DNA of 64,000 nucleotides, from the NCBI GenBank assembly GCA_964016885.1, contig OZ024741.1, positions 81,158,001-81,222,000 of the forward strand, given 5' to 3'. Within the stretch, counting starts at the first letter, position 1, and the number at the start of each line of letters is the position of its first letter. Under the pieces are notes generated by a model, which had not been told where the DNA came from, ran no database searches, and saw only the letters and a list, made by a program, of their open reading frames with translations. Shown here one piece after another: positions 35,878-36,097 of this stretch. A program made the position numbers and the translations under genes. Origin of the DNA: Eledone cirrhosa. Taxonomy: Eukaryota.

Positions 35878-36097
35878 GTGGTAGAACACTGGAAGGTAAT
35901 ATCTGTAGTGGTAGAGCACTCAGTCCATGGGGCGAGTTAGGTAGAAGTGGTTACACAACAGTTAGTTCACCATACCGAGAACAATTGTTGCACCTTAGCG
36001 GTGCCTCAGCCCGTAATATATATGTATGTGCTGAGGATCCGCTAAGATGAAACAATTGTTCTCGGTATGGTGAACTAACTGTTGTGTAACCACTTCT
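35878..36097. mobile_element. Fold-back Penelope-type element with a hammerhead motif in both arms
   Basis: 68-bp inverted arms 35943-36010 / 36030-36097; right arm CTGAGGA-TCCGCTAAGAT-GAAA-CAATTG-TT-CTCGG; homologous copy at 53895-54056. Confidence 0.7.

Follow-up and report, generated by a model that had tools for sequence, protein, structure and literature searches.

The 64,000-nucleotide stretch of DNA analysed here, referred to as the window, carries two short fold-back insertions in which two arms of the same sequence stand head to head (Table 1). Positions within an arm are given on a scale where +1 is the base 9 nt 5' of the core of a hammerhead motif. On this scale the motif extends from +6 to +44 with a predicted cut after +39, and arms end at one of two sites, A (~ +75 to +77) or C (~ +143), the alignments extending to +147 into the adjoining TA tract. 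The segment from A to C is the "tail", and arms are called tailed or tailless accordingly. In copy 1 the long arm has lost A9 and the first A of GAAA, and its private changes occur in 0/100, 0/109 and 2/99 of the sampled arms. All four arm-to-arm mismatches lie inside the ribozyme, three of them being the long-arm changes; the chance of 4 mismatches all landing in those 36 of the 68 shared positions is 0.08. Copy 2 (53892-54057) terminates at the same two sites as copy 1 and is flanked by (TA)n/(GA)n. Its tailed arm lacks 14 nt of the hammerhead and 22 nt of the tail, and its short arm ends inside the ribozyme or, in an alternative reading, carries an 11-nt deletion.

The original prediction had described two hairpins sharing one terminus, folding back just 5' of the hammerhead core and lying in (TA)n/(GA)n tracts, the first with all four mismatches in the ribozyme and with a long arm turned into a perfect 5-bp hairpin at the cost of A9 and an intact GAAA; all of this was recovered in the window. 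For the second copy it had placed ribozyme deletions in both arms of an otherwise nearly perfect stem. The long-arm deletion stands, the short-arm one is only one of the two readings given above, and the tail deletion, outside the ribozyme, had gone unmentioned. Both window copies are more damaged than most members of their family, and no ORF of the parent element lies within the 64 kb.

Table 1. Features of the window. Arm positions are on the scale defined in the text.
Feature	Position	Strand	Remarks
Second element, tailed arm	31209..31485	-	
Second element, tailless arm	31487..31676	+	
Second element, hammerhead motif	~31561..31626		8-bp stem I, palindromic stem III
Shorter (TA)n outside site C of copy 1	35866..35877		follows SINE tail
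Copy 1, tailed pLTR arm, +2 to +147	35872..36017	-	ends at site C in (TA)n; 96.6% to family reference
Copy 1, PLE "tail", site A to site C	35876..35941	-	~66 nt; on one arm only
Copy 1, long-arm hammerhead motif	35975..36013	-	core broken by three private substitutions giving a perfect 5-bp hairpin
Copy 1, junction filler, 12 nt	36018..36029	.	microsatellite-like, between both 5'-truncated arms
Copy 1, tailless inverted pLTR arm, +9 to +76	36030..36097	+	ends at site A; lacks 5' strand of stem I; one change in stem II
Copy 1, tailless-arm hammerhead core	36031..36060	+	intact; predicted cut after 36060
(CT)n, followed by (TA)n, beyond site A of copy 1	36098..36220	.	
Copy 2, tailless inverted arm, +77 back to ~ +24	53892..53946	-	(TA)n flanks
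Copy 2, junction	53947..53953	.	short templated piece and filler; read by eye
Copy 2, tailed arm, +8 to +147	53954..54057	+	then (GA)n
SINE-like repeats, (ATG)n tails	16506..16780; 35520..35860; 40944..41270; 54375..54720		
Non-LTR retrotransposon ORFs	3896..6074; 36731..38650; 49548..51263		AP endonuclease and RT matches; PHD finger after RT in the third
Inverted repeat, 859 nt, 91%	156..1014 and 4045..4903		

Other mobile sequences share the window. Both hairpin copies sit in microsatellites near SINE-like repeats, two of which show weak tRNA matches at their heads. Judging by its SINEs, the window may come from a cephalopod host. A second, unrelated head-to-head element also bears a hammerhead motif. 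It ends in (TA)n, has a tail of ~85 nt and folds back ~80 nt 5' of its core; 2,347 candidates were found in the genome, of which 40 were scored. Two of its loci share more than 1.2 kb of AT-/CT-rich upstream sequence, in which an RT frame was not found.

The family of the two hairpins is very abundant in the 3.0-Gb genome. A 16-mer lying just 3' of the ribozyme has 10,805 exact matches (1 for its reversed control), a tail 16-mer 3,851 (control 0), a 13-mer just 5' of the ribozyme 1,778 (control 197) and a 16-mer from the 5' UTR, beyond site C, 98 (control 0). A search with copy 1 returned 1,086 candidates, and the 40 that were scored are all near full-length fold-backs; the 30 loci that were fetched have constant ends and centres that vary from one to the next. 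Three samples were analysed. For the tail-anchored sample, 99 of the first 100 listed matches (contig C1) were fetched and 94 kept, after removal of four whose 100-nt context was identical to that of another match and one that was the second arm of the same locus. The mid-anchored sample holds 98 arms from the first 100 listed matches (contig C1) of the most frequent 16-mer, and it overlaps the tail-anchored one. The 5'-UTR-anchored sample holds 73 of the 98 genome matches, at 70 loci. Break points are the ends of local alignments, precise to a few bases, and deletions close to a junction count as truncation in their scoring.

A typical insertion consists of a tailed and a tailless arm joined head to head, with both 3' ends pointing outward into (TA)n. 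Tailed arms end at +137 to +147 in 91/94 cases, 62 of the 94 have an inverted partner, and 40 of these 62 partners end at +75 to +77. A TA run lies within 30 nt of 76/94 tailed ends, in agreement with the predicted microsatellite targeting; the remainder mostly lie within (CT)n. Among scored pairs, 44/46 junctions are distinct, which bears out the idea of repeated independent generation. The repeated junction sits on the stem III palindrome, and overlap junctions recur at self-complementary words, the stem III palindrome being used in 3 pairs. A long-read fold-back artefact was ruled out at the family level by short-read contigs and by the ~7% divergence between the arms of family pairs. Indeed, more than 3,000 matching short-read contigs per run (one sample, X1-X3, from one study) display many different centre joints, with TA or GA loose ends at both end sites; none of the listed pieces spans window copy 1 itself.

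The arms lead directly to a coding element. In L062-L065 and in many partial tandems they continue unbroken into an ORF for RT and endonuclease, and many near full-length partial tandems end in (TA)n, at A as often as at C. The autonomous PLE with the same terminus, which the original prediction proposed to look for, was thus found: L065 is a partial tandem with a unit of 2,563 bp, below the 3 kb that bounds Hydra-clade units. Natural copies carry the RT motifs F-D-x-x-D-F-Y, MGS-D and YRDDG, which align with those of ~700-aa relatives, followed C-terminally by a GIY-YIG-type endonuclease pattern (Y...YVG, R, E, N). This gives the single ORF of an EN+ PLE, and the partial tandems forming pLTRs, the inverted 5'-truncated copy and the one-sided tail are those of this group as well. 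No whole intact ORF was seen in the 5'-UTR-anchored copies, the longest stop-free frame being of 638 aa.

With a 395-aa natural frame as query, 124 relatives were obtained from proteins of 693-2000 aa; of the 120 listed, most are ~700 aa long with 31-43% identity. Their alignment contains RWK, DKT, YRDDG, a CxC linker, CxxC and CxH. In the family itself DKT is present in most copies and RWR in most, with RWK in L296; the CxCX5C linker as well as CxxC and CxH around the conserved E and N are found, and a CCHH motif, judged by eye, is absent from the family ORF. Pfam searches with five family ORF pieces and a PDB search with one gave no match, and one of five relatives showed a weak GIY-YIG match (E=0.06). 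Section 11 of PMC8557442 defines the Hydra clade by a unit below 3 kb, DKT, RWK, a Cys linker, hammerheads and (TA)n targets, the last being the insertion preference seen here. Its supplement includes Hydra hammerheads of the same layout, one of them from octopus with a different sequence from the family's, and a Hydra family for which an inverted copy with 5' truncation is recorded. The placement in the Hydra clade rests on motifs, no named Hydra protein being among the relatives found. Taken together, the hairpins are almost certainly 5'-truncated, head-to-head pLTR stubs of an autonomous Hydra-clade Penelope-like element, which gives the predicted PLE link its concrete form. They represent a new, very abundant family of a known PLE clade, whose structure is already published.

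Inverted arms with TA flanks would also be expected of a DNA-transposon MITE that carries terminal inverted repeats and targets TA. Here the two ends correspond to different positions within a single sequence, the centres vary, and neither fixed terminal repeats, nor a fixed length, nor the lack of an RT link is observed. The continuity of the arms into the RT ORF refutes a MITE, the structure named in the original prediction as its own refutation.

The original prediction saw here an undescribed non-autonomous, PLE- or retrozyme-like system. A hairpin or retrozyme master element that amplifies as a unit through its own RNA would account for short copies outnumbering 5'-UTR-bearing ones by ~100 to 1, and an origin of animal retrozymes in PLE pLTRs is put forward in a 2026 preprint (10.64898/2026.07.22.740005). 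However, nearly all junctions are different, which argues against a master non-autonomous hairpin, and the one identical-junction pair that was checked is a 3-kb segmental duplication. Moreover, arm lengths are continuous up to full length, and short copies occur as inverted pairs or as single arms, whereas non-LTR retrozymes are defined by tandem direct repeats that each carry a hammerhead. We therefore consider a master element very unlikely, and the system is better described as truncated pLTR pairs of the autonomous element.

We next turn to the hammerhead. The motif is of type I, with a 4-bp stem I, the core, a 2-bp stem II and a palindromic stem III; it agrees between the family majority and the predicted reconstruction, and its layout is that of the Hydra hammerheads in File S2 of PMC8557442. 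Since an Rfam scan of the window gave no hammerhead among 109 matches at E<=1, the ribozyme call relies on the motif and on its resemblance to PLE hammerheads in print. Of 83 arms spanning the core, 55 keep it intact, and the sole subfamily change within it falls on the unconstrained position N7. As a fold the hammerhead is weak, with -2.4 kcal/mol for stems I and II, and the minimum-energy folds do not contain it; two copies can pair through the stem III palindrome. Self-cleavage is hence putative, and with a stem II of 2 bp little or no activity would be plausible. Metazoan PLE hammerheads are reported in PMC4209133 to have low activity, and only in dimeric or dimer-mimicking constructs, and ribozyme cleavage is dispensable for the PLE reaction in vitro (PMC11167929). 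Cleavage was rejected as the source of the 5' ends, as only 2/94 breaks fall at +39 to +41, one of which is also a stem I overlap junction.

The lesions that cluster in the ribozyme of copy 1 are not a family trait, contrary to what had been predicted. Mismatches between arms amount to 76/971 positions in the ribozyme (7.8%) and 85/1,146 downstream (7.4%; p=0.74), and non-majority bases to 149/3,349 (4.5%) and 133/3,476 (3.8%; p=0.20), respectively. Of the internal deletions of at least 5 nt, one falls in the ribozyme, two lie just downstream of it, eight in the tail and one upstream. Because the junction lies in the ribozyme region, the motif is often cut by junction damage.

What does cluster at the hammerhead is the position where arms break, as the original prediction had anticipated for the fold-back points. 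In the tail-anchored sample the break rate per 100 nt is 0.2-0.3 at +50 to +124, 0.7 at +25 to +45, 2.5 at 0 to +25 and 2.2 at -25 to 0, and none of 17 tailed arms breaks at -50 to -200. Altogether 56/76 tailed arms break within +49 to -25, compared with 13/40 of the copies that contain the 5' UTR and therefore came to the ribozyme from its downstream side (p=2.5e-5). Partnerless arms taken alone show a weaker excess over these run-through copies (14/24 vs 13/40, p=0.067). Length-limited truncation, that is processivity, was ruled out, since the two arm types agree in break position and not in length: the median break is +8 for both 51 tailless and 46 tailed arms (KS p=0.67), and those tailless arms have a median length of 69 nt, the tailed arms in the tail-anchored sample one of 139 nt. 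In the 5'-UTR-anchored sample, a group of 5' starts between -141 and -148 was left out, as it looks like an alignment break at a subfamily indel.

The original prediction attributed the fold-backs to an RT that is halted by the hammerhead structure, changes template at that point and leaves mutations in the ribozyme. The roughly tenfold higher break rate at +25 to -25 than at +50 to +124 is in line with this, as is the hairpin-perfecting triple change of copy 1; moreover, 2/21 pairs have at least three ribozyme mismatches and none downstream, and the reverse case is found in 0. Five tailed arms (L171, L179, L199, L213 and L225), broken at +6 to +50, continue in direct orientation into a different part of the element, and these joins resemble template jumps. 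Stalling at the fold nevertheless explains neither the run-through of copies arriving from the 5' UTR, a control that largely refutes it, nor the fact that 44 of the 59 breaks between +44 and -50 lie at +16 or beyond it in the 5' direction, a stretch that is reached after all three stems have had their 3' strands copied. The family-wide lack of a ribozyme excess in mismatches, non-majority bases or deletions, together with the weak fold, also speaks against it, and we regard stalling as improbable.

A template 5' end, set by an internal promoter, appears to fit the clustering better than stalling. Two sequence words lie near the break zone, a GC palindrome at -49 to -38 which we take to be NRF1-like and, at 0 to +6, what is presumably an initiator-like word. 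As 25/40 of the 5'-UTR-containing copies reach beyond -50, their templates cannot have had a 5' end there, and a second, longer template must exist. By eye, four partnerless arms fuse directly to (TA)n at ~ +1/+2; the AT at +2/+3 also matches the target as a microhomology, which counts against reading these joins as start sites. Separately, L300, L304 and L310 (3 of 65 mapped rows, many of them interrupted) are insertions almost exactly one unit long, with the same start and end site (A or C), and are suggestive of one turn on a circular RNA template.

Two accounts of how the arms come to be paired were then weighed. We lean towards a mechanism with two cDNAs and a short template. The endonuclease would likely cut both strands of a (TA)n tract and RT would prime one cDNA at each cut, sites A and C being two internal RT start sites of the kind shown in vitro for another PLE. 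Most short cDNAs would then run off the 5' end of an RNA begun at an internal promoter, at ~ -30 to +15, in a zone just ahead of the ribozyme. Both cDNA 3' ends would subsequently be trimmed and joined via short palindromes or filler, and the ribozyme would be a bystander between RNA start and priming sites. Such a model requires two kinds of template, a short 5'-bounded one and a tandem or circular one. With respect to priming, site C is followed here by TA-rich template able to pair with the target, unlike in the PLE studied in vitro.

The principal alternative, close to a proposal in PMC3846280, is that a single cDNA, started at site C, primes its own copying by folding back at its 3' end; this would yield a hairpin whose second arm is trimmed at site A by endonuclease or repair and whose arms become unequal through later centre deletions. 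An endonuclease resolution is also what PMC8557442 invokes for the tail. Consistent with self-priming, 19/46 junctions are near-symmetric (within 6 nt) against 6.2 expected from independent truncation; this symmetry also fits joining at palindromes or palindrome-centre deletions. Furthermore, alleles at subfamily sites agree between the arms of one insertion in 139/148 comparisons, about half being expected, and the arms of L048 share 13 private changes and a deletion. The allele agreement places both arms in one source or one period, and subfamilies active at different times could equally be its cause.

The extents of the arms are more difficult to reconcile with self-priming. The arm reaching further 5' is the tailless one in 22/46 pairs, by up to ~180 nt, the tailed one in 21 and neither in 3, and in several pairs the arms barely overlap or do not overlap at all. 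Hence a simple copy of the first cDNA is insufficient unless later deletion is invoked, and invoked frequently. In addition, the equal use of A and C by near full-length copies makes A act as a primary 3' end, and in vitro another PLE extends both strands and uses two start sites (PMC11167929). Self-priming is therefore a serious contender but, in our judgement, a rather unlikely one.

A few insertions deserve mention in their own right. In L011/L012 and L173 both arms are tailed and private changes are common to both, and in L142 the arms differ at both linked subfamily sites scored, making it a candidate for the use of two different RNA templates. In the tail-anchored sample (L141-L230), (CT)n follows site C at 17/28 ends of one subfamily and at 0/42 of the other; possible explanations are slippage of the RT as it starts, later growth of a seed of two units, and priming on (GA)n targets. 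Such slippage at the start site may also seed (CT)n microsatellites.

Returning to the two-cDNA mechanism, a broader version of it can be put forward tentatively. PLE integration might be two-ended by design, the RTs of a dimer priming at A and C on opposite cut strands and both running off the 5' end of promoter-initiated RNA just ahead of the ribozyme, so that hairpin stubs would be the default product and full-length copies and pLTRs would arise from ribozyme-made circular or tandem RNA. We see this as possible rather than probable. If true, two-ended integration would explain the tail, the inverted pLTR and what the hammerhead does within one scheme, and thousands of natural insertions would serve as its record.

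The added value of the family is its scale, with thousands of independent insertions that end at two fixed sites and have their 5' breaks in a sharp zone of constant position. This break zone and the pairing of the two end sites are real features that can serve the study of PLE mechanism, since competing models for the formation of the tail and the inverted repeat and for the role of the hammerhead can be tested by counting in the hairpin family. It also carries a warning for annotation: such stubs mimic MITEs or hairpin RNAs and yet are retrotransposon ends. In the open-access literature searched, no paper on the hairpin family or on a two-cDNA model for PLE inverted repeats was found. Inverted 5'-truncated copies, the one-sided tail and (TA)n targeting of PLEs are described in PMC8557442 and PMC3846280, and the head-to-head layout of tailed and tailless copies also in PMC8969392.

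Compared with the Hydra clade as given in PMC8557442 (e.g. Hydra-1_Obim, Penelope-13_HM), the family shares the unit below 3 kb, the single ORF, DKT and RW(K/R), the CxCX5C linker, the endonuclease CxxC and CxH, the (TA)n target and a pLTR hammerhead whose core is followed by an extra U and whose stem III is short; with Penelope-13_HM it further shares the inverted 5'-truncated copy. It departs from the clade by RWR in most copies, a stem II of only 2 bp, a tail of ~66-70 nt instead of 30-40 and a very high share of short head-to-head stubs, and its hammerhead sequence differs from all those listed in File S2, including Hydra-1_oBim.

With Poseidon_Ac (PAc) of the green anole, a member of another PLE clade, the family has in common two fixed end sites downstream of the hammerhead that bound the tail, an AT-rich target and, apparently, uncleaved RNA as the main template, only 2/94 breaks being found here at the predicted cut. 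In vitro, this PLE protein cuts and extends both target strands, and its RT starts at two adjacent internal RNA sites bounding the tail (PMC11167929). In the present family, unlike in PAc, both sites lie 5' of the apparent ORF start and TA-rich template follows C. The Penelope families of Adineta vaga (PMC3846280) likewise show head-to-head inverted pLTRs, junction palindromes and a tail on one pLTR, but in few copies, whereas thousands are present here; self-priming on an antisense template, as proposed there, fits the arm extents seen here less well. Finally, the hairpins resemble the non-LTR retrozymes of the 2026 preprint in being short and non-coding, with a type I hammerhead and an origin in PLE pLTRs, and differ from those unit-propagating repeats by being inverted pairs with one-off junctions.
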